From Nemertoderma westbladi (taxonomy: Eukaryota > Animalia > Xenacoelomorpha), in assembly GCA_032718475.1 (NCBI GenBank), contig JAUCBJ010008074.1:19127-83126 (forward strand): a stretch of DNA of 64,000 bases, read 5' to 3'. The notes under the pieces were generated by a model, which had not been told where the DNA came from, did no database searches, and worked only from the letters and a program-made list of their open reading frames with translations. Below are positions 14,321-40,964 of the stretch, piece by piece (within the stretch, counting starts at the first letter, position 1; each line of letters opens with the position of its first letter). A program made the translations under genes and the position numbers.

Positions 14321-14404
14321 GTAAGCAGAAGCACCATGGGAATTTACTGAATAAAATTTTTATGAGATTTTACCGTGCGGAGGGGTAAGAACAATCTTTT
14401 CGAG

Positions 14405-15050: not shown

Positions 15051-15220
15051 TTGTCGACATTGCAAAAGCTGTACCCAACAATAAGTTATAATAAAATATA
15101 AAGGGAAATTAGGGAAATTGTTTTGGTTAGATTCAAGCACTATTGTAATCTCCTCTACTAAAATGGATGTAAAATCACACTAGGCTATAATAAACATTTT
15201 CTAAACTATCTTTTGCGCAG

Positions 15221-15531
15221 CTCTGGTTGACATTTACCGCCAATACGGCGACCATCTCTACTCCAAGGGCGATTACGACGCCTCCATAACCCAATACGTA
15301 AAGACAATAGGCCGACTCGAGGCCTCCTATGTTATACGTAAATTCCTGGACTCCCAGCGGATACACAACCTAACTATGTACTTACAGCACCTACATAGGG
15401 ACGGCTGTGCCACAGAGGACCACACCACCCTGTTACTCAACTGCTACACGAAACTCAAAGACAACATCAAACTCGATTCGTTTATAATGACAGACAGAGA
15501 GGCGGACTTCGATGTTGAGACGGGAATTAAG
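15221..15531 (+). CDS. VPS11: VPS11 internal exon (clathrin-repeat-like region)
   Basis: ttttgcgcAG acceptor, phase matches previous exon; QYGDHLYSKGDYD...YVIRKFLDSQRIHNLT...DHTTLLLNCYTKLKD...FDVETGIK; GTAAAT donor. Confidence 0.95.
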
Positions 15532-15789
15532 GTAAATACCGAACAAATATTTACTCTCTGGCTCTGCTCTTTATCATTTCTAACTGAGTTAAATCACCGT
15601 ATTTCACGCACGGGAGTCGGGAGTATTTGCAAGAAAATCATTTCCAGCGTATTACTTATAATATAACCCCATTATATGGCATGTCTGACGCATTTGCCTG
15701 TTCCACAACCGGTTAATAGTAACACAGGTTCCTACTAATAACTCAGAATACATGGACTAGGATTCTAGTATTTATACTACTACGACTTC

Positions 15790-17185: not shown

Positions 17186-17351
17186 TGTTGGTTACCTTCA
17201 TTTATATTACGGTAAATATTTAAATTTATTTGAAGTATGAAGTGCGAATAACCCTTTAAGTTGGACAGTAATAAATGATCTGAAATTATTTGATTATTAT
17301 TTGTTCCTACGTTTTTTCTTTAATTTATTTTAATATGGTATCCAATTCTAG

Positions 17352-19766
17352 GTCTGCAGACAAGCTGGTTACTACAAGCACGCGCTGTATCTGGCGGAGA
17401 AAAATCGCAAACACCATTGGTATCTAAAGATTCAACTGGAAGACCTGGGGGAGCACAGTAAAGCCTTGGAGTACATCGGCACATTGGGGTTCTACGAAGC
17501 CGAGGATAACCTAAAGAAATACGGCAAGTTGTTAATGGGGAGTCGTCCCATGGAGACCACGAGGTTCCTCATGGCATTGTGCACCGCCTACCGGCCCTCC
17601 GGGGTATCCATGCTCGATATCGGGGGTGTCGACCAATCAGAATCCTCGGACTTACTCGACAAATCGCGACAGAAGTTAGAGGCCGCAGACCCCGCCCATT
17701 TCATTCACATATTTATAAACAATCAGACTAGGTTGATCGAGTTTCTAGAACATATGATAGCCAATCAGACGTGTTCTAAAGTCGTCTACAACACCCTCGT
17801 CGAGCTCTACCTCCAGGAGATTGGTAGAAGTGAGTCCAAAGAAATTCTTGATAAACTTATGGATGTACTTAGGAATCACGGAGATAAATACGACGTGGAT
17901 CATTGCCTGATTCTTTGTCAACTTAACGATTGTCGCACCGCTATACTGTTTCTCTATGAGAAAGCCGCCCTGTTTACCCAGATTCTCAACTATCATATCC
18001 AGCACTCTGATTTCGATAGCATCATAGATGTCTGCAAGAAGTACGGCACTAAAGAGCCGTCGCTGTGGTTACAGGCGCTCAATTACTTGGGTAGTAGAGA
18101 GGGCGGTTGTAAGTCCAAAATACAGGAAGTCCTCGGTCACATCGAGAAGCGGAACATCATCGCTCCGCTCGTTGTCGTACAGACGTTGGCTCGAACTACG
18201 GCGTCGTTGGCCTGCGTCAAGGAGTACCTGATTAAACAGCTGAGAGCCGACCAAGAGACAATCCGCGAGCAGGAGGGAACGATAGCGGCGAACCGGGCGG
18301 ACACAGCCGTACTAACGGCTCGCAGCGGAGAGCTGGCCGGCCGAGCTACCGTATTCCAGGCCTCCAAGTGCGGCGTCTGCCAACACGTTCTAGAACTGCC
18401 CGCTGTGCACTTCCTCTGCCTTCACTCCTACCACAAGCATTGTTTCGAGGGTTACGCCGAACGCGAGTCCGAGTGCCCAGTCTGCGCGCCCGGGCACCGG
18501 GGCGTGGCGGAGGCGTTGGCCCAACTGGAGGACACCGCAGGGGTGGCCAATCAGTTCCTCAGCCGACTGAGGGTCTCCAAGGACGGCTTCGGCACCGTGG
18601 CTGAGTATTTCGGTAAGGGCTTGTTGGAGAAAGGTCTGTCTAGTAGTGGGGGTAGGGGGGTGCACACGGGTAGCAGTGGGGTGCACTCGGGTAGCAGTGG
18701 GGTGCACACGGGTAGCAGTGGGGTGCACTCGGGTAGCAGTGGGGTGCACTCAGGTAGCAGTGGGGTGCGTCCAAGGGGTACTGCTAGTGGTGTACCATCT
18801 GGTGGTTCTGGTACTAGCGTACCGGCGGGCGGTAGTCATGGCAGCGTCGCCCGGAGACCAACACCAACAACAGGTGACACCATCGCATCCGCCATTAGTA
18901 AACCCGTAACCAAGCAACCCGCCAATAAACACAGAGTCGCGGATGTTAAAACCAACATGGCCAAGATAGACGTAGACGCGCATTCTGTACAACGGACCGG
19001 GCCGGGAACGCTTTCCGGTCGTTTAGAGGACAACATTACCGATGGTCGGCCGGTTGGGGCTGCCAACGAGCCAAAGGGAACTCCCCCAGGGCAGTCCTCT
19101 ACATACCAAGGGCCACCGCAAGGCGCCATGAGGTCTATTGGATCCAAATATGCACCCAGTTCTGAGCCAACCTCAAACAGGGCCAAACAAGGTTCCAGTA
19201 ATGCTAACAAGGCCCCACTGGGCTCCAGTAATGCTAACAAGGCCCCACAGGGCTCCAGTAATGCTAACAAGGCACCACAGGGCTCCAGTAATGCTAACAA
19301 GGCCCCACAGGGCCCCAGTAATGCTAACAAGGCCCCACAGGGCTCCAGTAATGCTAACAAGGCCCCACAGGGCTCCAGTAATGCTAACAAGGCACCACAG
19401 GGCTCCAGTAATGCTAACAAGGCCCCACAGGGCTCCAGTAATGCTAACAAGGCACCACAGGGCTCCAGTAATGCTAACAAGGCCCCACAGGGCTCCAGTA
19501 ATGCTAACAAGGCCCCACAGGGCTCCGGTAACCCCTTCGATGGCCCACGAAGTTCTACTAACCCGTTCGATACCCCACAAGGTCCCGCCAACCCCACCAC
19601 AGCGCCTATGCCTGGTCCGTACAGGCCACAGACAGGCTCTCATACCGCTAACACTATGGTCTCTGAGGGTTACAATCCTTTCCTTTCTCCAGATGAAGAC
19701 AAAAACAATCCATTTCTGGAGAAAGACGACAATACTGATTCTACAAACCCATTTAATAATGATTAA
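17352..19766 (+). CDS. VPS11: VPS11 terminal exon (RING-H2, Vps11_C, repeat/NPF extension)
   Basis: ttctAG acceptor; VCRQAGYYKHALYLA..WYLKIQLED; RING CGVC..LELPAVHFLCLHSYHKHC..CPVC; FGTVAEYFGKG; stop TAA at 19766. Confidence 0.95.
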   Translation, partial: VCRQAGYYKHALYLAEKNRKHHWYLKIQLEDLGEHSKALEYIGTLGFYEAEDNLKKYGKLLMGSRPMETTRFLMALCTAYRPSGVSMLDIGGVDQSESSDLLDKSRQKLEAADPAHFIHIFINNQTRLIEFLEHMIANQTCSKVVYNTLVELYLQEIGRSESKEILDKLMDVLRNHGDKYDVDHCLILCQLNDCRTAILFLYEKAALFTQILNYHIQHSDFDSIIDVCKKYGTKEPSLWLQALNYLGSREGGCKSKIQEVLGHIEKRNIIAPLVVVQTLARTTASLACVKEYLIKQLRADQETIREQEGTIAANRADTAVLTARSGELAGRATVFQASKCGVCQHVLELPAVHFLCLHSYHKHCFEGYAERESECPVCAPGHRGVAEALAQLEDTAGVANQFLSRLRVSKDGFGTVAEYFGKGLLEKGLSSSGGRGVHTGSSGVHSGSSGVHTGSSGVHSGSSGVHSGSSGVRPRGTASGVPSGGSGTSVPAGGSHGSVARRPTPTTGDTIASAISKPVTKQPANKHRVADVKTNMAKIDVDAHSVQRTGPGTLSGRLEDNITDGRPVGAANEPKGTPPGQSSTYQGPPQGAMRSIGSKYAPSSEPTSNRAKQGSSNANKAPLGSSNANKAPQGSSNANKAPQGSSNANKAPQGPSNANKAPQGSSNANKAPQGSSNANKAPQGSSNANKAPQGSSNANKAPQGSSNANKAPQGSSNANKAPQGSGNPFDGPRSSTNPFDTPQGPANPTTAPMPGPYRPQTGSHTANTMVSEGYNPFLSPDEDKNNPFLEKDDNTDSTNPFNND
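19184..19530 (+). repeat. Coding 30-bp tandem repeat (APQGSSNANK, ~11 copies) in VPS11 tail
   Basis: GGCTCCAGTAATGCTAACAAGGCCCCACAG units, in frame. Confidence 0.95.
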
Positions 19767-23367: not shown

Positions 23368-24176
23368 TACTACTACTAGGTCGAGCGAACTCGGACAGTG
23401 GAAATGAGATCCTTCCAGACTTCCCGATTCTCCATAGTTGTTGCAATTTCGTTTCTCCCAAGTTCAGTATCCCTTTCAAGTTGATCTATATATGTTATGG
23501 CAGGTCGTCCACGACTACGCTTTCCATGAGTTGGTTGCCATAGAAGTAGATCTGGTATGACCTCGTCTTTACTTCGCCAGCAGTGCCCACTGAATCTTAA
23601 TCTGCGTTCACGGAAGGTGGTTGATACAGGTGGTATTGTACCATAAAGCTCGGCGTTTGTCATGTGTTGTCTCCAGCTGATGTTTAGGGCTGCCCTTAGT
23701 AGTCTTGTGTAGCAACCATCAATTCGTTGTTCAAGTGATTTAGTCAGTGTCCAGGTCTCACCCCCGTATAAAAATACACTTTCCACTGTGGCTCGGAAGA
23801 AGTTAGTCTTCAGGTGCCTGGAGAGATCTGATTTCCAGATGGTATCCATTTTTGATAGAGCTACCCAAGCCTTTGCTTTCCTAACTTCTATGTCCTTTTT
23901 GCTACTCTCTATCCATGATCCAAGGTACTGGAAGTCATCGACCTTCCTTAGTTGATTATTATCAATGGTTGTCAAGTTTCCATCAACATTAAAGGTCATG
24001 AATTCGGTCTTGGTAGCATTTATAAGCAATCCAACCTCCTTAGCAGCCCTCTCCACTTTATTTAGTAGAAGCTGTGCATCTGCTAGCGTATTAGAGAGCA
24101 GGGCGATGTCATCCGCAAAGTCGGTGTCTGTGACTGTAGTTGCCGGATATCTACTACTTCTGCGTTCTTGAAGTGT
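23368..24176 (-). mobile_element. 5'-truncated RTE LINE, same family as 55121-58041
   Basis: DFADDIALL RT motif; near-identical to the 3' ~800 bp of the later copy; (TAG)n tail. Confidence 0.92.
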
Positions 24177-25022
24177 ATGTATCTTCTTGTATGTTCTTGT
24201 ATGTATCAATACAAATTGAACAAAATGTAACCAAATGCAGAACTATAAGAACAAAATTTAGATTCAAGAAAGCGGAACTCTAAGTACAAAATATAGCCAT
24301 GGGTGGTACTCTACAGTAAGAACAAAGTCTAGCTACAGGGTTACAGCTACGTTAAAGTAAAGTTCACTTACAGTACGTCATGACGAATAATTAAAGACCT
24401 GTTTTTTCTACAGTACGTGGCAACATTTTGAGCAACTCTATCAGCAACTTAGTAAGCATTAGTAGTAATGGTTTACCCTACTTCTGCGACAGTTTGGTCC
24501 CACTTCACACCTTGGGTGTTAAGTAGGTCATTAATTAATTAATCAATTAATTAATTGGTCGATTAAACAATTAATTAATTGTTTAATCAATCGATTTGTA
24601 TCAAATAATGTTGCCAAAGGCAATTTAATTTGATACAAATCAATCAGATAGGGACGCGCGATGAATAAATTGTACTACAGTAGGTACAGTAGATAAAATA
24701 TACAATACAATAGGAACCGTAGTACAGTACAATACAATATACAATACATTTGTATTATTTTTGCCATACAATAGGTAAAGGTAGAATTAAATAAAAAGAC
24801 ACAATCGAAACCCAAAACATAAATTACCCTCACACAAAAATAAAGTGGCCCCAGTTTGACTAATCCCTTTGAATCCATAGCTTCGTTATTACATCAATTC
24901 ATCCAAGAAATTAGAATAATCATCTACTCTTGCAATAGTTTGTATTCTTTTGCGTTATACTTTATGAAGCAGTCCACGCGCATATTAACTCAAAGACAAA
25001 CCCCTACCCAAACACCATGTGA

Positions 25023-25325
25023 TCAATAATCCCACACCTCTTCTCCCCACGCCATTGAACATTCTCCCTTCTTCTCTTCTTTCTCTTCTTTTTTCTCTTC
25101 TTTTTTCTGTTCTTTTAATATATGAAAAATTGAGTTCCTGGACCTATATTCGCAAAACCGCAAATGGTGATCCTTTTCAGCTTCTCTAAAGCTGTGTGCG
25201 GGTTGAAAAGGACACTGAACCATTTTTTGATTCGAAAAGTTCTTACGACATTTTCTTAAATGCGTAACATATTTTTCTGAATGAATTCTGTGTGTGGCAT
25301 CATAAGGACATATGAAATATTCCAT
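25023..25325 (-). CDS. GTSF1/Asterix-like tandem CHHC zinc-finger protein (100 aa), left-arm copy
   Basis: CPYDATH-X9-HLRKC-RKN and CPFQPAH-X9-HLRFC (C-X5-H-X9-H-X3-C twice); C-terminal AWGEEVWDY; ATG at 25325. Confidence 0.8.
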   Translation of the reverse strand: MEYFICPYDATHRIHSEKYVTHLRKCRKNFSNQKMVQCPFQPAHSFREAEKDHHLRFCEYRSRNSIFHILKEQKKEEKKEEKEEKKGECSMAWGEEVWDY

Positions 25326-26037
25326 AGTAACAAAAGACAAAAACAAAATTTATTGAGATATACTTTTTAAAAAACTTTTAAAAACCTCACTTAATATTTT
25401 TAGAGATAATGATCTAACTTTACATGGTTTTATTTATATAGAAAGGTCCACCTTAACATTTCAAACAGAACCATAGTTTTTGGTATGGCATGCGTGAAGG
25501 ATTAAGCATCCCATGGAACCCCTTGTTGAGTTATACTCTACAATGAAATATAAAGACGCAATCGAGGCCCAAAACATAAATTACCCTCACACAAAAATAA
25601 AGTGGCCCCAGTTTGGCCCCGAGTCATCCCTCAATAATCTGCGGTCGTTAGGCTCTTATTAACTGTAGCATGACTAACCCAAACATCAATGCGTGAATGG
25701 GGCCTGCGTGAATGGGACCTGCCATAGAGTTTAAATTATTCAAACCTATAGCTTCGTTATTACATCAATTCATCCAAGAAATTAGAATAAACATCTGCTC
25801 TTGCAATAGTTTGCATTCTTTCATATTGTACTTTATGAAGCGGTTTACGCATGCATTAGCTCAACAACAAAGCCCTACCCAAAACACCACATGTCAAGTC
25901 CATGTGAGGGTTGAACCCATGACATGCGGGAGATGTGAATTCAAAGCAACCACTACACCAAGGTGGAACAGCAACGTTTGAATTTGTTCGTTAACGTTCG
26001 AATTTGTAAGACTCTGATTTAAGACCTGAGGCACTCC

Positions 26038-26432
26038 CCACAACCACAGCCACATCCACAACCACAGCCACAGCCACAGCCACAACCACAGCCACAGCCA
26101 CAGCCACAGCCACAGCCACAGCCACAGCCACAGCCACAGCCACACCACAGCCACAGCCACAGCCACAGCCACAGCCACAGCCACAGCCACAACCACAGCC
26201 ACAGCCACAGCCACAGCCACAGCCACAGCCACAACCACAGCCACAGCCACAACCACAGCCACAGCCACAACCACAGCCACAGCCACAGCCACAGCCACAA
26301 CCACAGCCACAACCACAGCCACAACCACAGCCACAGCCACAGCCACAGCCACAGCCACAGCCACAACCACAACCACAGCCACAACCACAGCCACAGCCAC
26401 AACCACAGCCACAACCACAGCCACAACCACAG
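26038..26432. repeat. (CCACAG/CCACAA)n hexamer microsatellite, left TIR
   Basis: Directly visible. Confidence 0.95.
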
Positions 26433-26845
26433 CCTCACCTTCACCCACTTTATTGTTAAATACGCCTGAGAAAAATTCAAGAAACATCTGGTTTACAATA
26501 GATTATTCTTTTTTCACAACTCCATTCTAGCCTCCCTCTATAAAAGCCCCCATTCACCGCAACTGGTCATGTAAATGTTTACTGTTACTGTTTACTGTCT
26601 AAATGTTAAATGTAACTGTTTAACTGTTTTGATGTTCTTTGTTTAACCCCTATATTATTTATCCAAAGTTGAAAAAGAAAAATGAAATATAGTCGACTAT
26701 TTTCATATTTTTAATATAGCAACATTGAAATATATATTTATAACATAACACATATACATATACATATAGCAGAGTAACATTTAAGATATAACACATTGTA
26801 ACACATAAGTTATAACACATTGTAACATTTCATTCAATTGTCTAA

Positions 26846-27601
26846 TTATCTTCTGCACTGTCTCACATTAACTGTACGACTGTTACTGTTCATAATCCTA
26901 GGATATACAACAGTTGCTGGAGATATAACTTTTCCATTCCCTACTCTGATTTTCTGTCCATTTTCATTGTCATTCTCCTCTGATGCTTCCTCACTGTCAT
27001 CGCTACTCTCCTCTGATTCTTCCTCACTGTCATCGCTACTCTCCTCCGATTCATCCCCATCACTCTCATTTCCATCATTATCACTCTCCTTATGCGAATG
27101 TTTCTGCATTTCATTCAATTGTCTAATTATCTTCTGCAATTTATTTTTATTTCCTAATACATGTCTTAATATCTCCTCATTATCTGAGTCATTATCCTCA
27201 CCACTTTCATGTTCCTCGACTTCTTTCTCGCTCTCATTTTCTTCACCACCACTCTCATTTTCTTCTTTCTCTATCTCACTCTCCGTTTCATCATTCTCAC
27301 TTTCCTCTGATTTATTCTCTTCCTCACTCTCATCGTCCTTTTCACTATGTGGCTGTTTCTGTATATTCTTCAAAATATTCATGATTTTCTCGAATTTATG
27401 TTTCATCATTTGTTTAATCTCTAGAAAATCACTCTCAACTCTCTTTTTGTTTTCTTCTTCACTAAAAATATCATCATTATTTTTTAATTTCTTTGGTAAT
27501 GGTTCCATTACACCTTCCTTTCTATGTATACTCATATGACGGGATATACTGTCTCGTCTCATTTCTTTATTACAAACCAAACATCTTTCATAGCTAGGCA
27601 T
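26846..27601 (-). CDS. C2H2 zinc-finger plus acidic low-complexity protein (251 aa) in the element core
   Basis: CLVCNKEMRRDSISRHMSIH; basic PLPKKLK; duplicated helix+acidic module; TATA and Inr-like motifs upstream. Confidence 0.65.
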   Translation of the reverse strand: MPSYERCLVCNKEMRRDSISRHMSIHRKEGVMEPLPKKLKNNDDIFSEEENKKRVESDFLEIKQMMKHKFEKIMNILKNIQKQPHSEKDDESEEENKSEESENDETESEIEKEENESGGEENESEKEVEEHESGEDNDSDNEEILRHVLGNKNKLQKIIRQLNEMQKHSHKESDNDGNESDGDESEESSDDSEEESEESSDDSEEASEENDNENGQKIRVGNGKVISPATVVYPRIMNSNSRTVNVRQCRR

Positions 27602-27716
27602 TATATAGCAATGTCAATTGATATTATGAATTTTCGCTGAATGATTTTACAAAATTTTAAATAAATAAAACTTTTATGAAAATAAATAAAACTTTTAAAA
27701 ATAAAAATTAGAGAAT

Positions 27717-27748
27717 GAATGAGAATGCGGTGAATGGGGGCTTTTATA
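27717..27748 (-). promoter_or_regulatory. Putative TATA + initiator for the core ORF
   Basis: TATAAAAG followed ~28 nt later by TCATTC on the minus strand. Confidence 0.45.
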
Positions 27749-27852
27749 GAGGGAGGCTAGAATGGAGTTGTGAAAAAAGAATAATCTATTGTAAACCAGA
27801 TGTTTCTTGAATTTTTCTCAGGCGTATTTAACAATAAAGTGGGTGAAGGTGA

Positions 27853-28292
27853 GGCTGTGGTTGTGGCTGTGGTTGTGGCTGTGGTTGTGGCTGTGGCTGT
27901 GGTTGTGGCTGTTGCTGTGGTTGTGGTTGTGGCTGTGGCTGTGGCTGTGGCTGTGGCTGTGGCTGTGGCTGTGGTTGTGGCTGTGGTTGTGGCTGTGGTT
28001 GTGGCTGTGGTGTGGCTGTGGCTGTGGCTGTGGTTGTGGCTGTGGCTGTGGTTGTGGCTGTGGCTGTGGTTGTGGCTGTGGCTGTGGTTGTGGCTGTGGC
28101 TGTGGCTGTGGCTGTGGTTGTGGCTGTGGTTGTGGCTGTGGCTTGTGGCTGTGGCTGTGGCTGTGGCTGTGGTTGTGGCTGTGGCTGTGGCTGTGGCTGT
28201 GGCTGTGGTCTGTGGCTGTGGCTGTGGCTGTGGCTGTGGCTGTGGTTGTGGCTGTGGCTGTGGCTGTGGTTGTGGATGTGGCTGTGGTTGTG
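27853..28292. repeat. (CTGTGG/TTGTGG)n hexamer microsatellite, right TIR
   Basis: Directly visible; longer than the left copy. Confidence 0.95.
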
Positions 28293-28890
28293 GGGAGTGC
28301 CTCAGGTCTTAAATCAGAGTCTTACAAATTCGAACGTTAACGAACAAATTCAAACGTTGCTGTTCCACCTTGGTGTAGTGGTTGCTTTGAATTCACATCT
28401 CCCGCATGTCATGGGTTCAACCCTCACATGGACTTGACATGTGGTGTTTTGGGTAGGGCTTTGTTGTTGAGCTAATGCATGCGTAAACCGCTTCATAAAG
28501 TACAATATGAAAGAATGCAAACTATTGCAAGAGCAGATGTTTATTCTAATTTCTTGGATGAATTGATGTAATAACGAAGCTATAGGTTTGAATAATTTAA
28601 ACTCTATGGCAGGTCCCATTCACGCAGGCCCCATTCACGCATTGATGTTTGGGTTAGTCATGCTACAGTTAATAAGAGCCTAACGACCGCAGATTATTGA
28701 GGGATGACTCGGGGCCAAACTGGGGCCACTTTATTTTTGTGTGAGGGTAATTTATGTTTTGGGCCTCGATTGCGTCTTTATATTTCATTGTAGAGTATAA
28801 CTCAACAAGGGGTTCCATGGGATGCTTAATCCTTCACGCATGCCATACCAAAAACTATGGTTCTGTTTGAAATGTTAAGGTGGACCTTTC

Positions 28891-28924
28891 TATATAAATA
28901 AAACCATGTAAAGTTAGATCATTA
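28891..28924 (+). promoter_or_regulatory. Putative TATA + initiator for the GTSF1-like ORF (mirrored in left arm)
   Basis: TATATAAA at 28891, TCATTA ~30 nt downstream, ATG ~85 nt further. Confidence 0.45.
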
Positions 28925-29005
28925 TCTCTAAAAATATTAAGTGAGGTTTTTAAAAGTTTTTTAAAAAGTATATCTCAATAAATTTTGTTTTTGTCTTTTG
29001 TTACT

Positions 29006-29308
29006 ATGGAATATTTCATATGTCCTTATGATGCCACACACAGAATTCATTCAGAAAAATATGTTACGCATTTAAGAAAATGTCGTAAGAACTTTTCGAA
29101 TCAAAAAATGGTTCAGTGTCCTTTTCAACCCGCACACAGCTTTAGAGAAGCTGAAAAGGATCACCATTTGCGGTTTTGCGAATATAGGTCCAGGAACTCA
29201 ATTTTTCATATATTAAAAGAACAGAAAAAAGAAGAGAAAAAAGAAGAGAAAGAAGAGAAGAAGGGAGAATGTTCAATGGCGTGGGGAGAAGAGGTGTGGG
29301 ATTATTGA
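29006..29308 (+). CDS. GTSF1/Asterix-like tandem CHHC zinc-finger protein (100 aa), right-arm copy
   Basis: Identical translation to left copy; ACTATGG start context. Confidence 0.8.
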   Translation: MEYFICPYDATHRIHSEKYVTHLRKCRKNFSNQKMVQCPFQPAHSFREAEKDHHLRFCEYRSRNSIFHILKEQKKEEKKEEKEEKKGECSMAWGEEVWDY

Positions 29309-29870
29309 TCACATGGTGTTTGGGTAGGGGTTTGTCTTTGAGTTAATATGCGCGTGGACTGCTTCATAAAGTATAACGCAAAAGAATACAAACTATTGCA
29401 AGAGTAGATGATTATTCTAATTTCTTGGATGAATTGATGTAATAACGAAGCTATGGATTCAAAGGGATTAGTCAAACTGGGGCCACTTTATTTTTGTGTG
29501 AGGGTAATTTATGTTTTGGGTTTCGATTGTGTCTTTTTATTTAATTCTACCTTTACCTATTGTATGGCAAAAATAATACAAATGTATTGTATATTGTATT
29601 GTACTGTACTACGGTTCCTATTGTATTGTATATTTTATCTACTGTACCTACTGTAGTACAATTTATTCATCGCGCGTCCCTATCTGATTGATTTGTATCA
29701 AATTAAATTGCCTTTGGCAACATTATTTGATACAAATCGATTGATTAAACAATTAATTAATTGTTTAATCGACCAATTAATTAATTGATTGATTAATTAA
29801 TGACCTACTTAACACCCAAGGTGTGAAGTGGGACCAAACTGTCGCAGAAGTAGGGTAAACCATTACTACT

Positions 29871-30313
29871 CTTACTGTAATTTCCCACTTACTTACTGTA
29901 ACTTCCCACTTACTTACTGTAACTTCCCACTTACTTACTGTAACTTCCCCCTTACTTACTGTAACTTCCCACTTACTTACTGTAACTTCCCACTTACTTA
30001 CTGTAACTTTCCACTTACATACTGTGTAACTTCCCCTATTACTTACTGTAACTTCCCCCTTACTTACCGTAACTTCCCCCTTACTTACTGTAATTTCCCA
30101 CTTACTTACTGTAACTTCCCACTTACTTACTGTAACTTCCCACTTACTTACTGTAACTTCCCACTTACTTACTGTAACTTCCCACATACTTACTGTAATT
30201 TCCCACTTACTTACTGCAAGTTCCCCCTTACTTACTGTAACTTCCCACTTACTTACTGTAACTTCCCACTTACTTACTGTAACTTCCCACTTACATACTG
30301 TGTAACTTCCCCT
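29871..30313. repeat. 21-bp satellite (TACTGTAACTTCCCACTTACT), left part
   Basis: Directly visible; resumes after element 2. Confidence 0.95.
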
Positions 30314-31617
30314 TGTTGCCGTTATTCCCGACACCATGGGGGAAAACGCCGATGCTGGAGGCGGAATTTTCAGACCACGGGATTCCGGCCAGTCACCGGA
30401 TATTGGGAGTGGAGAAGGAGTCCTTTCTGAGATGCAAGATTGCAATTGAGAAAACGTTGCATTGGTTGGATATAATCTTTTAATGTAACTTTCCTACAGT
30501 TGAATCTTGATTGAGAGTAAGTTGGGCTTCCCCACACCAATATACACCAAATATTCACAATAATATACGAACATATAAATTCCTACAGTACATTAATTAA
30601 TTACCCACTGTTCGCTTTAGATTTTAACCTAACTAATGATCCCCATTTTCCCTCGGTCCTAGTCCCGGTACCGTAGTGTCGGTGTCGGTCGACCCTGTTG
30701 CGTGTCCGTCCCACCCTTCCCGAACCCCAAAGGGATCGGTCATCAGGAAAGCGGTAAGGCTTGGCTAGGGGTCTGTCGGTTCATCGCAGGGTCCCAACCA
30801 CCTAAGCTTTCCGAGTCCCTTTCAGGCTCGTAGTCGCTTCGGTAGCCGAGAAGCTGCTCCGAATAGTCGGTAGGCCAGTAGAGTCCGGTCCTTTGTCTTT
30901 CGACCCCGTTGAGTGTCCGTCCCACCCTTCCCTAACCCCGAAGGGATCGGTCATCAGGAAAGCGGTACGGCTTGGCAAGGGGTCTGTCAGCCTGTTGTGA
31001 GTCCCAACTGTCGGTTGCTTTCTGAGTCCTTATTCAGGCTCGTACTAACGCCAGTCGTGGAACCCACTCCAGGAAGGCAGTCCTCGTCGAACCCTTCCTC
31101 CGTTTAGTCGGTCGATCCGTTGCAAGTCACCGGTGCAGTCGGCAAGCTTTCCGAGTCCTTATTCAGGCTCGTAATAACTGCCGGTGACCAGGGACCGCTA
31201 AGGATCTGTCTGTCGGTTTCCGTCGCAAATCCCTGACACAATCAGCAGACTTTCCGAGTCCTTATTCAGGCTCGTAATAACTGCTGTTGGCCAGGAACCG
31301 CTAAGGGCAGTCCTTGTCCCTAGGCCTAGCGAGTTACCAAATCCACCTCTACAGGCAGCAGGAAGTTGGCTAGGCCTAATAGTATCAGGTAAACCTGAGT
31401 ACTGCTTGATTTTGCCTCCCACCCTTGGCCCTTAAATATCTGATATGAGTCCCGTGCCCCGTAAGTCGCCCCAATATTCGCCCGTGAATCGCACCCAGTC
31501 CATTGAATATACCCAAATTCCATGTTCCCGCACCCAGTACTGATATTGGAATATTCATTATAAATAAATCCAAAAAATATTCAACTCGCGTTATGAAAAG
31601 TTGAAATACCGCGAACA
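30314..31617 (-). repeat. 3' LTR of element 2 (~1.3 kb)
   Basis: TGTTGCCGTTATTCCCG...TACCGCGAACA shared with 43877-45368. Confidence 0.9.
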
Positions 31618-31794
31618 GTCCCCCCCAATGACCTTCGTGAGGTCTATCGGTAGATCGAGTTTGCGTAGGTCATTTCCCATATAAAAAACCCAAATTTTAA
31701 TATTGCATAGTCATGATTAATTTTTCCTAGAGTTAGTTTATGTAGATATAAAAATAAATGTTCGATATAAATGTCCATAGAATATCCTGGTCCT

Positions 31795-33579
31795 CTATTT
31801 CTTACTCTGATACGCTTTCCTTCTCTTCGCCCGTCTACTCTCGTCGATCGCCAGTGCAGGTAGGGGAGCGTCAACGTCCATCGCGAGCATCGCTGCAGCT
31901 TGTCTCCTGGCGGCCCTTCCTTTGGATGGTAGCGGGATCATGTCCGTCCGTCTCTCCAACTCGGTAGTGCGTGCCTCTAGAAACCACTTTCCATCACCGA
32001 ATTCTTCTTTGTAGGAGTATAAGCGCCTGAGGATCTCGAAGGGACCGAATAATCCAGCGCTCAATAGTAGATCCACATAATGGAATGGTAGTGTCGATGC
32101 CGTATGGAGGCGTTCTGGGAACGAGAAGTATCCGCACGCCATCTCTTGCGCGACATTTCGAGCGCTTCTCCACACTTTGGTCTTTACGTGGTTATTGGCG
32201 TAGGTTTCAAACATAACCATATTTCCCATAGCTGTTACGTCTTTAGTAGGACACTTTATGTTACAACGGGGACTCGCGGAATGTCCACGGAAACCGCATT
32301 TTGTGCAGAGGTTGTAAAGGGTAGGACAAACCGAAACATCGTGGCCCGATATCGCGCAATAGGGACAGTAAAGTATCCCAAGGAGCTGGAGGCACAAATC
32401 GGTAACCCGATTTCTCCTTCCGCGTGGACACTGTTCCGAACTGCAGTTTCCGCACACCTCCAGTTGCATCTCCCGGCCGAAGAATATCGGGATCGGTACG
32501 CCGGCGTAATACTCCAGCCATCGGTCACTTTTGGGGATACTCGCAGTTGCCGGTAGCCCGCGGAATGCTGGGCTTTGGTGGAATATGTTCTCGCTACGAT
32601 AACCTTCCTTATAGCCCGCCGGTCGCATCCCGGGAGCCTGTTTCTGGCGGTGGATCCACTCGGTTTGTTCGGCATACCATCGGGTAAGTCGCATAGGGTC
32701 TTGTGGAATGGAGGGGGCCATCGCCACAGCCGGTCGGCGAAGGGGTACTGGCGATTTCGTCAGTCTCACTTCCCGGAATCCACGCATGAATTCTGTGGAT
32801 CGCAACCAGGCTAACAGGGTTTGGGTGTCGACGAAGTGACTAATGGTGCTGAGGTCTTCTTGTCGGTTTCTTCCGAAGGGAGCATTGGCGTAGTCATTCC
32901 GGATATCCGCTTTTATATCTGACCCAATCGTAATAACATCGAAATCGAATAGGATCTGTTGGATCTCCGGTGGTAATAACCAGATCGCTCCGGATGTCCG
33001 CACCTCCTGTTTGGGTGTCGAGAAGATCCGACATATTAACACTAGACCGTCTAGGGTTCCGAGGACGACGACTAATGATCGACCGTATTCCTTTGTCCCA
33101 TACTTCTCCTGGTAGTCATCGCGGTTCTGGATGACCGATATACGCTCCTCTCGTAGCGACGTTGTACATTCCGCTAGGTTTCCCCAGTGGGTGAGGTATG
33201 TACTCTTGTCGTCGACGAAACTTTGGCATCGCACCAACGTAATCGCTTTCGAAGTGGGCGTCGCGTTTCCCTCGTTGTCATATATCAAACATCGGGATTT
33301 GTAGACGCTTCGACGGAACGTTTCCCAGAACGTCAACTCCGCTCCTCTGGTTGCCTTTGCGTTCCGAGTTCTTTTCAGGCTCGTACTAGCATCGGACAAC
33401 CAGAGCTCTCGTAGATTACGGGAATCCGGTTCCTCTCGCCCAGAGAATTTAATGATTCGCACATTCTCTGTTATCAGGGCGTTCCATTTCGTATCAAAGT
33501 TAGGAGATCTAGGCTGTGGATATTCCAGTAAATCGAGAGTGTTACGTAATTCGCCGAGAATTTGGCGATTTGAGTCCAT
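31795..33579 (-). CDS. Element 2 ORF3: DEDDy-like exonuclease N-part plus CCHC cluster (probably internally deleted)
   Basis: IYDNEG, LVVVLGTLDGLVLI, LPPEIQQIL...IGSDIKAD, FVDTQ; CPYCAISGHDVSVCPTLYNLCTKCGFRGH; FETYAN, CGYF, LPFHY match element 1 ORF3. Confidence 0.78.
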   Translation of the reverse strand: MDSNRQILGELRNTLDLLEYPQPRSPNFDTKWNALITENVRIIKFSGREEPDSRNLRELWLSDASTSLKRTRNAKATRGAELTFWETFRRSVYKSRCLIYDNEGNATPTSKAITLVRCQSFVDDKSTYLTHWGNLAECTTSLREERISVIQNRDDYQEKYGTKEYGRSLVVVLGTLDGLVLICRIFSTPKQEVRTSGAIWLLPPEIQQILFDFDVITIGSDIKADIRNDYANAPFGRNRQEDLSTISHFVDTQTLLAWLRSTEFMRGFREVRLTKSPVPLRRPAVAMAPSIPQDPMRLTRWYAEQTEWIHRQKQAPGMRPAGYKEGYRSENIFHQSPAFRGLPATASIPKSDRWLEYYAGVPIPIFFGREMQLEVCGNCSSEQCPRGRRNRVTDLCLQLLGILYCPYCAISGHDVSVCPTLYNLCTKCGFRGHSASPRCNIKCPTKDVTAMGNMVMFETYANNHVKTKVWRSARNVAQEMACGYFSFPERLHTASTLPFHYVDLLLSAGLFGPFEILRRLYSYKEEFGDGKWFLEARTTELERRTDMIPLPSKGRAARRQAAAMLAMDVDAPLPALAIDESRRAKRRKAYQSKK

Positions 33580-34776
33580 ATTTTAAATTATGTCCGTTGC
33601 AAATGTACATCAGTTAATTATAAATCCAGAAAGTCTGATTCTATAGTGACTGCAGAATAATTCAGTTTATTATTATTCAGTTTATTATTGCTATATAGGC
33701 ATCTACCATCTTATTGCTACTACATTCAGTATTTACAGTTACTATAGCTATACATTAATATCCAACCAGTTTTTTACTTTTTATGTCCTATTCTTTTTCC
33801 AATTCTTTTCTTTTCTACATTTTATACATTTTTTTGTCTTTTTTCATTTATCATTTATTATTCATTTCACATTTCATTATTTCTTTCCACATTTCATCAT
33901 TTATTTCCACATTTCATCATTTATTTCCACATTTCATCATTTATTTCACATTTATTACACATTTCATTTATTTCCATTTCATCATTGGGGTTATAGCCCC
34001 CCGACTATCATCATTTTGTTATAAGCGCAGCACCAGGGTGCGCATCATTACATTTTCATCATCATATGCGTCATCATTCAGTTTATAGTAGGGTTGTCTG
34101 TTTCTTTTCATCATTTCCAAACTACATTCAACCATCTTCTTTGGGAAATTTTCGTTGTGGAAGGGGTGTTACGCGGCAATCTGGGATCTACAGCTGGGCT
34201 AGTTACACCGCCTATGCCCCAAACTGCACACGTAACGGACAATGAAGACGCTGGAAGTGAAGTCACGTGGAATGCACCAGGGACCCACCAGAATAACACT
34301 CCCAGCAACATAAAGTTCAGCCGACGAAGTCATGTGGGATGGGGTTACGCAACATTCTGGGATCTACAGCTGGACTAGTTACACCGCCTATGCCCCAAAA
34401 TCCACGCAACGGTCCCACCAGAATAACGCGACTGAGAAACATAAAACCTCTATCGACGAAGTCATGTGGATGCACCATGGACCCACCAGAATAACGGGAT
34501 AGAGGGGGTGTTGCGCGGCAATCCAGGATCTACAGCTGGACTAGTTACACCGCCTACCAATAATCCAATGTCGTTGGTCCCGATGACCAAAATCAGGGTA
34601 AACAATACATAAACGACCCTGCGTCAGTCGAAACATCTGCAGGGTGACGCTGGACTCCACATAACACACGAGGAAACACAAATACCATTGCGTGGTTGCA
34701 GTTGGTTTAAGGGGGTTCCATTACTCATTGTCAGTAAATCACGTTTTAAAGAGTTTGTCAACAGGATGAGAAGGGT

Positions 34777-37700
34777 TTAAACGGGTTTAGCATTGTCACC
34801 AATGTCTGCAGCAGGATCCGTAGTAGGGAACTTATCACCTCTCGTGGAGTCACCACTGCCATTGCCTTCGAGAAGGCACAGCTTCTGGATAGGGCGTTGG
34901 TAGTGGCCCTTTGCCGTTCGTATCGTCACAGTCCTCGCAAGTCCCTCTTTGCTCGCTTGTATTGCCACGACTCGCGCCACAGGCCAGTGGACGCGGTCTT
35001 TAAGGTCTTCCTTAACTAGCACCATGTCGCCAACTGCGACATTCCTGTAGGTGTTATTCCACTTCCTCCTGGTCCGGAGGGTTATGAGGTACTCCTGGGC
35101 ACAGATTCTCCACCAATGCGCTGCCAACACTTGGGCCTTCTTCCAGTTTGTATGTCTCGCGATATCGTTGGGATCCGGAAACATTGTCTCTGGGAGAACA
35201 TGAGTTTTAGGTCTCCCCAGTAGGTGGTTAGGAGTAAGGGGCTCCAGGTCTGTGGGGTCGTCGCGGATAGGGACAATGGGTCGGTTGTTCAGGGTAGCCG
35301 TGATCTCACAGAATGTTGTGCGGAGGGTGTCATGGTTTACCCGGGTGTCTCCTAGAGCGACGCGCATGGATCGTTTCACTAGGTCGATCAGTTTCTCCCA
35401 TACCCCGCTCGTATGGGGTGCTAAGGGGGTCTGGAAGTGCCACTGTATCTGGTGTTCCTTCCAGACTTGGGATGCGGTGTTATCGGTAAACCATCCCTCG
35501 ATCGCCTCTCTGCTCGCTGGGTATTTGACTTTGTATTCAACCGGGGCATTTGCCATCCGGGTATTCAGTCGAATCAGTCCGTCCTCTCCCATCATTGGTC
35601 TCAGTTGGTAGACTGGGCTGTCCGGTTTCAAGATCTTGCCCGCACTGAGTTGTTCCCACTCATCGGGGAAACTTTCTCTCTGGACATATCCAACGATACA
35701 CTTCTCCGCGATAATGAGTTCTTGTATGCTCCGTTTAACTATCGGCTTGTTGTCTTTCCACCGTAGGAAATTGCGAAGGGTTATAATGTGGTGGACGAGC
35801 CGTCTCATTGATGAAGTTCGCTCGATCAACAGATGTAAGGACGCCGCTGGTTGAGTGATCGTCGCGACGTTATAGTGCCTGCCCGAGTCCTTTGCAGGCT
35901 CGGTCAGACAACTATAAATTTCCACTGCGTTGCTTCTATGGACTTTACGGATCTCTTTGTCGTCCTCGGAGTATTTTCTGCTATCGAGTTCGGGATCGAA
36001 TCGGGTACTCCATGTTAATTGTGGTTGTTGTAGGAATTCCGGGCCTGTAAGCCAGAGTTTACTCTTACCGAGTTGTTTTGGGGTGGCGCCTCGGCTTGAT
36101 AAGTCCGCTGGATTTTCTTTCCCGTTCACGTGGTGCCACTGTTCTCGGCCGGTACACTGTTTTATCTCCGTGGCTCGGTTCGCTACAAACGTGGTGTGAC
36201 GCCGTGATGGAGAGTGGAGATAGTAGAGGACGATACTCGAATCGACCCAGAAGTGTTGAGATTCGATGGGGATTCGTAGGTTCCGCATGACCATGCGGTT
36301 CTGTCTCACTGCCCAAACCGCAGCCTGTAGCTCAAGTCTTGGAATCGTTGCTACGAATTCCCCGGATACTGTCTTAGCTTTAGAAAATAAGAAGCTCGTA
36401 TCGCCATTTCCATCATTGCTTAGTCTTCTTAAGAAGGTGACTACGCCGATTCCGGTATTCAAAGCATCCGAGAAGGTATGGAGCTGGAAGATATCGGTGG
36501 GTAGTTTATCGAGGAAGAACGGTCGAGGGATCGCATAAGATGTAGGTGTTCGAGCTGTTCCGTCCATTTTCTCCATTTGACACTGAGGTGTGGGGGGAGT
36601 TCTTCATCCCATCCTAGTCCTTCTATCCACATTTCTTTAATCAGATTCATTCCGGCCAAGGTTACCGGAGATATGAAATTTAGTGGGTCGAATATTGCAC
36701 TTTTTATCGACAAACATCCCCTTTTCGTCATAGGCTTGGGTAGGGGGTTATATTTGAAAATGAATTCGTCTGATTCTATATCCCATTCGATACCGAGTAC
36801 ATGGTGTTCCACATCCTCGGAATACATTTTGTTGTTGTCCAGTCGGATGTCCTCCGGAAACTTTTCCATAAGTTTCTTGTCGTGGGATCTGAACTTCACG
36901 AGCGGAAAACCTCCTTTCTTTAAACATTCTACCATCCCCATTGCTAGCTGAAATGCCTCGTCGACATTATCTGCGCCGGCGCATCCGTCGTCCACGTAGA
37001 AGCATCGTCGGATGGTTTCTATGACGGTTGGAGGGAACTCGTTTTCGCACATAGTTGCCGTTTTCTTCAGCATGTCACTACATGCTACCGGCGAGTCCTT
37101 AGCACCGAAGATCCTGACGATCATGCGCATTACGTCTATATCCTTCATTGTAAGTTGACTAATCTCCTGTTGAGTTAATGTTTTATCCGTCCATAGTATA
37201 CGTAGACAGTCTGAGTCTCTGGGTAGCGTACGGACCTGGTGAAACATGGCTTTAATGTCGCAGGTGAATGCTATCTGGTTTTCCCTGAACCTGATCAACA
37301 CGCCAATGAGTGTACTGTATATGTTGGGCCCCGTGTAAAGCTGGCTGTTCAGGGATTCGCCTTGATACATAGCGGCGGCATCATTGACTACTCGGATTTT
37401 ACCACCCTTCCGGGCTTCTACCACATAGTGGGTTGGAAGATAATATGTTCTGTTACCCCCTTGCAGTTCATTCCGGGGTACCATTTCTGCTAATCCATCC
37501 TCGAGATATCCTTTGATTACAGTATTATATTTCTCCTTTATCTCGGGTTGGTCATTCAGCCGGCGTAAGATCCCCTTAAGTCGCCTAAGGGCCATGTTGG
37601 CGTTATTTGCCATTGGTTTATTTGGGTCCTTCCATAACATGGGTGAACTCCAGTGTCCGTCTTTGAACGTGGCCTGGTCTAGGACGTCCATACAATATTG

Positions 37701-38425
37701 ATCCTCTTCGGACGGGTTTTCGTCCTTTTCAGCGAACTCTTGGGTCTCTAGATTAAAGTATTTAGTCATCTCTTGCTGGGTTTTCTCTGTCTCGAGAAAC
37801 AAATCCTCGTCAATGTCTGTAGCTGAACAATAACCCACGGATGTTGCATTCTCTTTAATCTGACATTTAGGAAGGTATGTATAGGTGTCAGTAGTCTCTT
37901 TCTTGATGCCGCAGAGTGTCCATCCCATTATTGTTCGTTCGGCGTAAAAGCCGTCATCCTGCTTTATAGATCGGGCGACGTCTCCGGTGTGTATGTGTAA
38001 TTCCGGTGTATCAAGTCCGATCAGTAGGGTGATGCGGTTTACATCCAACGGCGGGCACCTTAGGTCTACATCGTCTCGGTCCAACTGTATGAGGGGGGCG
38101 TACTCGGCTGATTGTCGGAACCACACTCGTAGGTTGGTGTGTACCAAGGCGTTCTCGATGGTCAGCTTAACTGTCTCGTAGCCCTTCATTACTACTTCCA
38201 TCTGGAGCTGCACCTCCCCGGATTCTACCTCTCTATGGTCGGTGATAGTTTGTATGGGCCGTTTGCAAGGTTCATAGTCTAGGCCGAGTTGCTCAAGGAA
38301 ATCCCAGTCGATGATGGTTCCGTCCGATCCGTTATCAAGGAACGCGAGCGTCGTCAAGGATTTGCCGACCCCTTGAATTCTTACTGGGATTACTTTGGCA
38401 AAGACCATGTAACGGCGATTTATAA
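34777..38425 (-). pseudogene. pol: Element 2 pol (PR, RT, RNase H, partial IN); frameshift ~36545; integrase Zn finger and part of core deleted near 35517
   Basis: FLDNGS, FYVDDG, HTFSDA, NPADLSSRG; KVKYP joins directly to ASREAIEG..WHFQTPLAPH. Confidence 0.9.
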
Positions 38426-40953
38426 CTACTACTACTAGGATCGGCATGCTGCATTGCAGCTGCATTTTCAAGAATGCTGTGCCGGCCTGTCAACAAAATC
38501 GCACCGCCACAACTCCCTATCACCCATGACATTTGCTAGATCATCCGCATCTTTAAGGCCAGTGTCCTTTAAGATGCGTCTCAAGAAAGTCATGGGCTGT
38601 CCACCATGCTTATTCACTCCATGAGGCTGCCAAAGTACAAGATTATGCACTGGCTGGTCCTCACGGCGAAAGCAATGTCCTGCAAAGCGGAGGCGATTTT
38701 GTTCTAGTGTCAAGCTTGGGGGAACCAATGAGACACCTCCAATGTTATATAGTGTCTGGTTGGAGATGTGTGCATTGTACTTGACACAATGAACCCGGCG
38801 TAGCATTCTTGTGAATGTGCCATCCAGAGATTTGGTGTCCTCAGCAGTTAGAGCCCAGCATGGACTCCCGTAGAAGAGTACTGGAACTACTGCTGCTCTA
38901 AATAATCGGACCTTAAGTTTCCGATTAATTCTCGGTGATTTCCAAATCCTGGAAAGCCTATTCAAAGCTGTCCATGCCTTTCCCTTACGTATTCGAAGGT
39001 CCTCACCTGACTTCCGGATCCATGATCCCAGGTAACAGAAGTCGTCCACATGCTCAAGCATACCATCCTTTGAGCTTATGCTCATCCGACCAGAGACTTG
39101 CTGAGGACTTTCAAAGTTAACAGTCAGAATTTTGGTCTTTCTGGAGTTAATAAAAAGACCAACACTAGAAGCAGCATGTTCTAATGAGCTGAGGAGCCGT
39201 TGGGCTCCCTCTAATGATTCTGAGAGTACTCCTAAATCATCAGCAAAGTCTAGATCAGTTAGGTACTTGGCAGGATTTCCTCGACTTCTGGAGCCAGTAT
39301 GTGGAGTTATCATCACCCCATCATCATTATGATGATCTAAGGACATGCGTAGAACATAGTCAACCACAATAATGAACAAGAATGGTGCAAGTGTGTCTCC
39401 TTGGAGGACGCCCCATAACACTTCAAATGGTTCTGTGTCACCGTCAACAGTAGACACAAATGTTGTCGAACCATCGTATACTGATCTGATTGCTGCAATA
39501 ATTTCATCAGGAATCCCATATAATGAAAGTATGCTGAACATACGTGAGCGAGAGACTGAATCAAAGGCCTTGAAGAAGTCAACAAAGATAACAGCCAGAT
39601 GCCTGTCTTTCTTTTTTGATAATTCTTCAATTATCCTTCTAAGTGCCAAAATGGGCTCCATGGTCCCACGACCTTTACGGAACCCATTCTGATTTCCACG
39701 GAGCAGTCTCTCAATGGGATCCCTGATGCGATTTAATAGAATCCTATTGTATAGCTTTGCAGCAATCGAGATCAATGAGATTCCCCGAAAAGAACCATAG
39801 AGTGTTAGGTTGCCCTTCTTGGGAACTGGCACCAACTTATTTGTTTTCATTTCTTGTGGGACTCTTGCTGTTCGGTACATGTCTACTATGATGGGATAGA
39901 TGAGCTTTAAACATTCAGGTATTTTAAAGACCTCAGGGGGAACACCATCTACTCCACTGGCACGATTGGTCTTAATGCTCTTTGCAGCAGCCTTCACTTC
40001 TGCAAAGGAGATATCGCCAATGGGAATATCTGGGAGTACAGACTCAGACACTTTTACTTCTATAAAGTTATCAGGCAATACCCTGTCATTATTGAGGAGC
40101 TTTTCAAAGTGGGCTTTCCAACCATTGAGGCGATCGGCTGGTGATTCAGCCTTAACCTTGGTGGTTGGTTGGCTTTTCCGCCCAGTAAGCAGATTGATTG
40201 ATTTCCATGCCTGGGATGATTGCCTGCTGTCGTCAGCATCATTGATGGCATCAACCTGTTGGTTTATTAGCTCCTGTAGATTAACAGAGTACTGCCTGTT
40301 CAGGGACCTAGATGCAGCCTTAACTGCATTCTTGGCCGCTGTAGTCTGTTTGAGTCGGGACTCTTTCTGCGCCTTATGAAGGTCATTTCGGCACTTCTGA
40401 ATTTTGTTGTCAGTCCAGGGGGCCCTTTTCCTGTTTCGAGGGTATACAGGAACTGTTTCTGCAGCTGCTAACTTAACTGCTTCTGTAAAGGCAGTATAGC
40501 CCTCACAGTGATCTGCCGCCTCAGAGGCAAGAGCCTCATACCTGTTGCTCAGCTGTAGTGTGAAGCTGGATCTCACACTTGGCTGTTGCAACAGAGAGGA
40601 CCAGTCATGCCGCGGCAAGGCAGATTTCGTTGTTCTGCTAGCACGCAGACTAAGTCTTACCTTGGCCACAATAAGGCGGTGATCACTGGAGAAGGGTCAA
40701 AGTGTAAATGCATTACAGTCTTGTATAGAGCTCCTGTATTTCCTACGAAACAGAATATGGTCTATCTGGGACTTGTGACCACTGGGTCCACTATGAGTCC
40801 ATAGCTTTCCAGTTCGCTTCTTGAACTGGGTTCCAGCCGAAAACAATCCATTTCCAGAGATAAAATCCTGAAGATGGACGGAATTTCGGTTAACACTATT
40901 GCTATAGACCCAGGGCGATGTAGGTGATTGATGCAGACTTGCATTAAGCGATT
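38426..40953 (-). mobile_element. 5'-truncated RTE LINE nested in element 2
   Basis: End of EN domain (QIDHIL, SDHR) plus RT (GVLQGDTLAP, DFADDL); (TAG)n tail; 11-bp TSD GCGATTTATAA at 38415-38425 and 40954-40964. Confidence 0.95.
38468..40669 (-). CDS. RTE ORF, reverse transcriptase portion
   Basis: VPVPKKG, QNGFRKGR, VDFFKAFDSV, DFADD, FCYLGSWI. Confidence 0.9.
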   Translation of the reverse strand: MAKVRLSLRASRTTKSALPRHDWSSLLQQPSVRSSFTLQLSNRYEALASEAADHCEGYTAFTEAVKLAAAETVPVYPRNRKRAPWTDNKIQKCRNDLHKAQKESRLKQTTAAKNAVKAASRSLNRQYSVNLQELINQQVDAINDADDSRQSSQAWKSINLLTGRKSQPTTKVKAESPADRLNGWKAHFEKLLNNDRVLPDNFIEVKVSESVLPDIPIGDISFAEVKAAAKSIKTNRASGVDGVPPEVFKIPECLKLIYPIIVDMYRTARVPQEMKTNKLVPVPKKGNLTLYGSFRGISLISIAAKLYNRILLNRIRDPIERLLRGNQNGFRKGRGTMEPILALRRIIEELSKKKDRHLAVIFVDFFKAFDSVSRSRMFSILSLYGIPDEIIAAIRSVYDGSTTFVSTVDGDTEPFEVLWGVLQGDTLAPFLFIIVVDYVLRMSLDHHNDDGVMITPHTGSRSRGNPAKYLTDLDFADDLGVLSESLEGAQRLLSSLEHAASSVGLFINSRKTKILTVNFESPQQVSGRMSISSKDGMLEHVDDFCYLGSWIRKSGEDLRIRKGKAWTALNRLSRIWKSPRINRKLKVRLFRAAVVPVLFYGSPCWALTAEDTKSLDGTFTRMLRRVHCVKYNAHISNQTLYNIGGVSLVPPSLTLEQNRLRFAGHCFRREDQPVHNLVLWQPHGVNKHGGQPMTFLRRILKDTGLKDADDLANVMGDRELWRCDFVDRPAQHS

Positions 40954-40964
40954 GCGATTTATAA

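Follow-up and report, generated by a model that had tools for sequence, protein, structure and literature searches.

The window analysed here is a 64,000-nt stretch of a Nemertoderma westbladi contig (JAUCBJ010008074.1, positions 19,127 to 83,126). It contains a 5410-bp element composed of two long inverted arms and a short centre. Each arm carries an ORF for the same protein, here designated P0001, of the GTSF1 family, whose members assist PIWI proteins in silencing transposons. The centre carries another ORF, designated P0002. The main features are as follows.

24461..29870, no strand: whole element, 5410 bp, with Maverick-type ends and without any core gene
24461..26561, minus strand: left inverted arm, about 2.1 kb, starting with AGTAGT
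27726..29870, plus strand: right inverted arm, finishing with ACTACT
29006..29308, plus strand: GTSF1-family ORF (P0001, 100 aa) in the right arm, pointing outward
25023..25325, minus strand: second copy of the GTSF1-family ORF, encoding the same protein, in the left arm
26846..27601, minus strand: central ORF (P0002, 251 aa) with an N-terminal C2H2-like finger followed by an acidic low-complexity tract
27853..28293, no strand: 6-base microsatellite of the right arm (26038-26434 in the left arm, with another length)
29687..29801, no strand: AT-rich palindromic subterminal stretch, mirrored at 24530-24644

In self-comparison, with the microsatellite set aside, one of 1704 bases differs between the arms, which are separated by a centre of 1164 bases. 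The two P0001 ORFs in the window are base-identical and both intact. The first-pass annotation had described an intronless 100-aa ORF in each terminal inverted repeat, and this is borne out: the protein is identical and the ORF is intronless at the DNA level. Besides both copies of the GTSF1 ORF and P0002, the interval 24461-29870 has ORFs of at least 90 aa only in two frames of the microsatellite. In translation, the microsatellite gives long runs of Pro-Gln, Thr-Ala or His-Ser with a frame slip in each arm, and it may be the remnant of a coding repeat.

The element ends are (AGT)2//(ACT)2, and both arms stop exactly at AGTAGT. Among vertebrate Mavericks, this end motif is the most frequent one (PMC8097293). 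Either of the two motifs that were accepted as Maverick ends, (AGT)2//(ACT)2 or (AG)3//(CT)3, is expected at a given edge by chance with a probability of about 6e-4. An 18-base end pattern was also seen inside three viral contigs; there was no likeness beyond the pattern, and these were rejected as chance matches. The element shares with Maverick/Polinton transposons the end motif, long terminal inverted repeats and intronless ORFs, but it is 5.4 kb long while Mavericks are 13-25 kb, and it has 2.1-kb arms with a gene inside (PMC8097293; bioRxiv 2023.08.22.554363). Such arms exceed the published ranges of Maverick terminal inverted repeats, 46-1447 bp and 100-1500 bp. With the gene content of Polintons (PMC5718144) as the reference, none of the core genes (pPolB, integrase, ATPase, protease, capsids) was found within 24461-29870. 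No target-site duplication of 4-9 bases, allowing a 3-base slip, was found at the edges (6 bp, or 5-8 bp, for Mavericks). The element is therefore at best a non-autonomous derivative, and because the core genes are missing it is classified as Maverick-type and not as an intact Maverick. The proposal of a mobile element with terminal inverted repeats is thus strengthened by the end motif and by the multi-copy variants described below, and weakened by the lack of a target-site duplication.

The two flanks of the element are unrelated to each other. The right end adjoins a 21-base satellite and the left end does not. These unlike flanks could mean that the ends belong to two insertions which recombination or the assembly has joined, or that a deletion occurred next to the element. 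In the same satellite (29871-30311 and 45369-48559) sits a BEL/Pao-like LTR element at 30313-45369, whose repeats (30313-31618 and 43877-45369) have the ends TGT...ACA. Its coding region is broken, with a LINE-like ORF inside (38468-39880). On the other side, 284 bases left of the element, a LINE fragment at 23368-24176 is 98% alike, in inverted orientation, to 57235-58043, which is the 3' end of a longer LINE copy at 55034-58035.

The arms are themselves composite. Besides the features above, the following can be recognized.

27741-27749, minus strand: TATA-like box at the inner arm end, facing inward, mirrored at 26538-26546
27688-27701, minus strand: 14-base leader motif before the central ORF P0002
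28300..28361, no strand: short repeat stretch with very high summed contig depth in sequencing runs X1 and X2
28362..28789, plus strand: SINE-like piece 1, a degenerate tRNA-like head and body without tail
28891-28898, plus strand: TATA-like box TATATAAA, 115 bases before the GTSF1 ATG, a consensus match only
28947-28960, plus strand: 14-base leader motif common to the GTSF1 ORF and the central ORF, noticed post hoc
29309..29575, plus strand: SINE-like piece 2, without head, with a 132-base internal deletion and with the tail kept (3' limit approximate)

From the inside outward, the order in each arm is the inward TATA-like box, the microsatellite, the high-depth repeat 28300-28361, SINE-like piece 1, a leader of about 210 bases with the ORF, SINE-like piece 2, and the AT-rich terminal 300 bases. 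SINE-like piece 2 directly follows the GTSF1 stop codon and is 86-92% alike to piece 1. The position of the GTSF1 cassette between two SINE-like repeat pieces is new here and had been missed in the first-pass annotation. The flanking pieces are called SINE-like based on the tRNA-like head, the contig depth and a poly-A loose end seen in contigs behind 28789. The head was recognized by ARAGORN at a relaxed threshold only; Rfam did not find it and returned just one sub-threshold AT-rich match. A cassette between a head-body piece and a body-tail piece is the trace that recombination between SINE copies would leave; it also fits a resident gene that was flanked by two independent SINE insertions.

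The TATA-like spacing upstream of the ORF that had been proposed corresponds to the box at 28891, as a consensus match. The 14-base motif stands 48-56 bases past the TATA-like boxes of both the GTSF1 and the P0002 leaders, and elsewhere in the window it occurs only in the mirror arm. A shared leader motif of at least 14 bases appeared in 5 of 2000 resamplings, in a post hoc test with a T/A-rich motif. The motif shared with the central ORF hints that the GTSF1 ORF is an element-type gene rather than a recent cargo. An intron in the GTSF1 leader was considered and dropped, as no fitting acceptor precedes the ATG.

No homologue of P0002 was found in the homologue searches, and Pfam and PHROG gave low-complexity matches only. 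Its atlas leads all scored below 0.9: the top one was archaeal, and viral C2H2 clusters stood weakly at 0.85-0.86. ORFs built like P0002 are common in Mavericks.

Part of the stretch is present in five sequencing runs of four studies, and no RNA run is listed among them. The contig comparison covered 28300-29227 in 4 of the 7 listed runs; the last 26 codons of the ORF and the element ends lie outside this interval. Runs X1 and X2, from two studies of one organism, cover the GTSF1 ORF with several distinct variants, and the assembly may have been made from X1. In X1 the summed depth, which does not equal copy number, is 367,000 at the tRNA-like head, 3,000-25,000 in the SINE body and 320-1230 in the GTSF1 ORF. 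At the short repeat 28300-28361 it is 60,000-69,000 in X1, about 7,000-8,000 in X2 and 60-70 in X4. In its other copies, this repeat has a short palindrome on the inward side in place of the microsatellite. The contigs of X5 cover only the tRNA-like head. Those of X4 leave the GTSF1 ORF uncovered, and such a gap in contigs proves nothing.

Among the pieces listed for X2, the ORF is found in the exact form (depth 192) and with 7 differences in 162 bases (depth 47), 11 in 136 (75), 23 in 160 (38) and 19 in 95 (33). Among those listed for X1, it is found in the exact form (334-355) and with 6 differences in 107 bases (99), 12 in 86 (40), 12 in 93 (82) and 15 in 137 (64). The variants thus diverge by 0-20%, and all 11 of the in-ORF pieces are free of gaps, among the 26 pieces listed (there are 1878 more). 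The junction between SINE and cassette is exact in X2 and 9% diverged in X1, and the deletion that marks SINE-like piece 2 has a depth of 352 in X1 and 140 in X2, similar to that of the exact ORF. Several ungapped ORF variants indicate a small, diverged multi-copy family and not a lone locus. Decayed other copies, which had been named as evidence against the original proposal, are not what was seen: among the pieces listed, the related copies are many, look intact and have no gaps. The variants are either element copies or host paralogues; the contigs are compatible with both. One 298-base contig of X2, low in depth and only 80% alike over 95 bases at 29073-29167, may come from the parent gene in the host.

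Among the 40 of 100 rows listed, 6 of 13 changes in the ORF are synonymous, against an expectation of 18% (p=0.017) that rises to 26% when transition bias is considered (p=0.088). None of these 13 differences changes a zinc ligand. The synonymous lean hints at purifying selection, in a small test that is non-significant under transition bias. It also bears on an explanation at the RNA level, by which the arms would yield hairpin or piRNA precursors against the host GTSF1 mRNA and the protein would be incidental. Near-perfect inverted arms 1164 bases apart could serve this purpose, and TART-A with its nxf2 sequence is a precedent (PMC7785250). However, the whole ORF and a promoter-like leader are kept, and synonymous-leaning changes erode RNA matching yet preserve the protein. 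This explanation is considered quite improbable.

The structure might also be no mobile element at all, but an intronless host paralogue of GTSF1 from a repeat-rich region, caught in a local inverted duplication or an assembly mis-join, with the variants being host paralogues. Neither a target-site duplication nor a transposition gene was found, the arms consist largely of assorted host repeats, the right end adjoins a satellite array, and none of the listed contigs spans 28300-29227. Against this, both arms end exactly at AGTAGT, which chance would rarely produce, and the microsatellite differs in length between the arms. The depth of the exact ORF compared with the weakest variants, a rough measure only, is 192 vs 33-47 in X2 and 334-355 vs 40-99 in X1. 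The weak atlas leads of the central ORF include the viral C2H2 clusters. We regard a purely host origin as unlikely; taken together, the readings that involve a mobile element are probable.

The motifs of P0001, given for the right-arm copy, are as follows.

29021..29083, plus strand: CHHC finger 1, C6-H12-H22-C26, in which H15, K18, K25 and K28 are at the positions of mouse R26, R29, K36 and K39
29117..29179, plus strand: CHHC finger 2, C38-H44-H54-C58
29297..29302, plus strand: W98-D99 motif, 39 residues past finger 2 (homologue median 41)

The ORF is a genuine GTSF1/Asterix-family gene sequence. Both fingers have exactly the spacing C-x5-H-x9-H-x3-C that had been read from the sequence. The HMMER search that had been suggested for zf-U11-48K found PF05253 in two stretches, with a score of 40 bits (cut-off 21.1, E=3.3e-10). 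Among PDB sequences, mouse GTSF1 (6x46) is the top match (E=2.6e-11) and the GTSF1 chain of 9nhb follows with E=2.9e-8; U11-48K is far weaker (E=0.063). P0001 is nearer to GTSF1 than to U11-48K or TRM13. The AlphaFold2 model has a mean pLDDT of 85.5, and its top two fold matches are 6x46 (E=3.6e-4) and the SIWI-GTSF1-Maelstrom complex 9nhc (E=1.9e-3). In the atlas search, 29 of 30 matches belong to the PF05253 set. The homology to GTSF1/Asterix proposed earlier is thus supported alike by Pfam, PDB sequences, the atlas and the fold.

Close relatives were not found. The word-index search gave no relative among 76 candidates, and none of the 434 matches of the full HMMER search is close across both fingers. 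No relative was seen in viral contigs, phage records or JGI metagenome contigs, and the model had no match to viral folds at E<=0.001. In a quick tree of the 93 of 151 rows with two fingers and the W motif, P0001 is on an end branch of 1.4 and is not placed in any named paralogue group. Compared with mouse GTSF1 (6x46) and silkworm Gtsf1 (9nhb/9nhc), its best sequence and fold matches, P0001 largely keeps the basic residues of finger 1. It differs from them in having no extension past W-D, a K/E linker predicted to be helical, and two Trp (W93 and W98) instead of three. In the AlphaFold2 model this K/E-rich linker is predicted as a 26-residue helix.

It had been claimed earlier that the gene was trimmed to fingers plus a PIWI-binding motif, the shape of a minimal decoy. 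PIWI activation requires the basic, RNA-binding ridge of finger 1 and Trp residues (bioRxiv 2021.05.04.442675; PMC9539491). In P0001 the ridge is H, K, K, K, basic at three of four positions. The first ridge position is non-basic in 99 of the 150 homologues taken from the full HMMER search, and all four positions are basic in only 30 of 150. The Trp in an acidic stretch after the fingers, also described earlier, corresponds to W98-D99. W98 is invariant in an alignment (A1) of 23 homologues, picked mostly for having the motif. Among the 150 homologues, 140 are two-fingered, and 92 of these 140 have W-D/E 25-60 residues after finger 2. Four of the 92 stop within 5 residues past the motif and 88 run on beyond; some of the short entries may be gene-call artefacts. 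Five unnamed GTSF1-like proteins of 105-126 aa from metagenome contigs (P0023, P0025, P0030, P0111 and P0155) also end at the W motif.

The closest known counterpart in plan is Gtsf1L of Bombyx mori, which has two fingers and a 39-aa tail with W99-D100-D101 at its end (PMC10711660). According to the same source, W99 strengthens the binding to Ago3 and is needed for the interaction with Vreteno, a Tudor protein, and Gtsf1L gives a modest boost to Ago3 slicing. P0001 and Gtsf1L both have two CHHC fingers and a tail of about 40 aa (39 in Gtsf1L and 42 in P0001). W98-D99 and W99-D100 both stand in the last few residues, likened here by description. Gtsf1L, however, is a host protein, while the P0001 gene is multi-copy and inside inverted arms. 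P0001 retains both activation modules, the ridge and W-D, and therefore bears no sequence mark of a dominant-negative protein. Three of four ridge basics, a W-D motif and an active natural protein of the same plan predict the build of a working cofactor. The claim of a minimal decoy is not supported in this form, as silkworm Gtsf1L naturally has the same plan and is active, and both modules are kept. Some trimming may still have occurred, since 88 of 92 homologues are longer past the motif and a SINE-like piece directly follows the stop codon. The host animal is taken to have PIWI proteins. GTSF paralogues are selective for PIWI paralogues, and mouse GTSF2 does not boost MILI (bioRxiv 2021.05.04.442675), so that a decoy role is conceivable for a protein with both modules.

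It can be speculated that P0001 serves counter-defence. It would be the product of a long-standing Maverick accessory gene, which would occupy PIWI or the Tudor pocket by means of its W-D tail, give no proper stimulus to slicing, compete with host GTSF1 and dampen piRNA silencing. The location of the gene in the terminal repeat gives a double dose. Intact ORF variants are up to 20% apart among the pieces listed, and the leader motif is common to the GTSF1 ORF and the central ORF. The PIWI selectivity of GTSF paralogues means that a decoy need not look broken, and the predicted helical K/E-rich linker and the longer tails of most W-motif homologues also speak for this reading. A virus-like element might also be less constrained than a purely germline one, as can be reasoned from PMC6719617. 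On the other hand, no module is lost, silkworm has a natural, active protein built in this way, the SINE-flanked cassette resembles captured host DNA, and a trans-acting product of a non-autonomous element would be weakly selected. Counter-defence is a possible but rather doubtful function.

We tentatively prefer another explanation, in which a non-autonomous Maverick-type element captured a complete, short host GTSF1 and spreads it as cargo, and the protein would likely be an ordinary PIWI cofactor like Gtsf1L. The promoter and ORF would have been captured as DNA, plausibly through recombination between SINE copies, and the cassette would have been copied into both arms when the terminal repeats became identical. 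The polymerase and integrase needed for mobilisation could be supplied in trans from an autonomous Maverick at another genomic locus. Transcription would start from the TATA-like box. Finger 1 would bind RNA, the W-D tail would dock on PIWI and/or a Tudor protein, and the docked protein would stimulate slicing by whichever PIWI paralogue fits.

Capture as cargo is favoured by the two retained activation modules and the active natural protein with the same plan. The Maverick end motif, the unrelated flanks and the several ungapped ORF variants argue for it too, as do the exact and 9%-diverged SINE-cassette junctions and the synonymous lean. In addition, it has been argued that germline elements would bear a cost if the piRNA pathway were broadly blocked (PMC6719617), which also favours a cofactor. 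The explanation is weakened by the missing target-site duplication and core genes and by the overlong arms. The variants, which may lie in element copies or at host loci alike, weaken it as well, and there is no obvious gain to an element from an activator of its own silencing.

A few known systems are comparable. TART-A is also a transposon with the sequence of a host piRNA-pathway gene (nxf2). It is a retroelement whose nxf2 fragment acts via piRNAs, whereas the present element is DNA and has a whole ORF with a promoter-like leader (PMC7785250). The anti-silencing protein VANC of VANDAL transposons would be similar to P0001 if counter-defence holds, both then being accessory proteins of DNA transposons with a bearing on silencing; VANC differs in being from a plant, sequence-specific, directed to DNA methylation and not derived from a PIWI cofactor (PMC6719617). 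According to PMC6719617, antisilencing factors encoded by TEs and directed against the piRNA pathway had not been described by 2019. The later case of TART-A and nxf2, at the RNA level, is the nearest precedent (PMC7785250). The first-pass annotation knew of no TE-borne GTSF1, and none was found in the literature searched, which lacks most subscription papers.

Judged from sequence, the locus presents a real and unusual feature, a putative gene capture by a Maverick-type element, and a decoy function is an attractive possibility. The arms-race model of piRNAs predicts counter-measures encoded by transposons, and if counter-defence is true, P0001 would be a protein antagonist of the piRNA pathway encoded by an animal transposon. 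If P0001 activates PIWI, this would be a case of a host defence gene multiplied by a mobile element, less striking but likewise undescribed in the literature searched. A 100-aa PIWI cofactor on a mobile element, together with the existing in vitro slicing assay, makes the question directly testable.

Other parts of the window contain further genes. An intact BEL/Pao gag-pol ORF of 1736 aa is located at 2245-7455 on the plus strand. Two ORFs, 8593-11127 (plus strand, 844 aa) and 31795-33579 (minus strand, 594 aa), have Cys/His-rich ends and no Pfam match; each is beside a BEL/Pao gag-pol, and they are possibly a common accessory gene. The host gene VPS11 (14086-19766, plus strand) has a very long last exon that extends the C terminus by about 380 aa, a region with repeats of 7 and 10 residues. 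The best matches of the VPS11 exon are animal, with at most 46% identity to any, and in a quick 29-row tree VPS11 is on a long branch without placement. The low identity and the long branch indicate that the host is a fast-evolving non-model animal.
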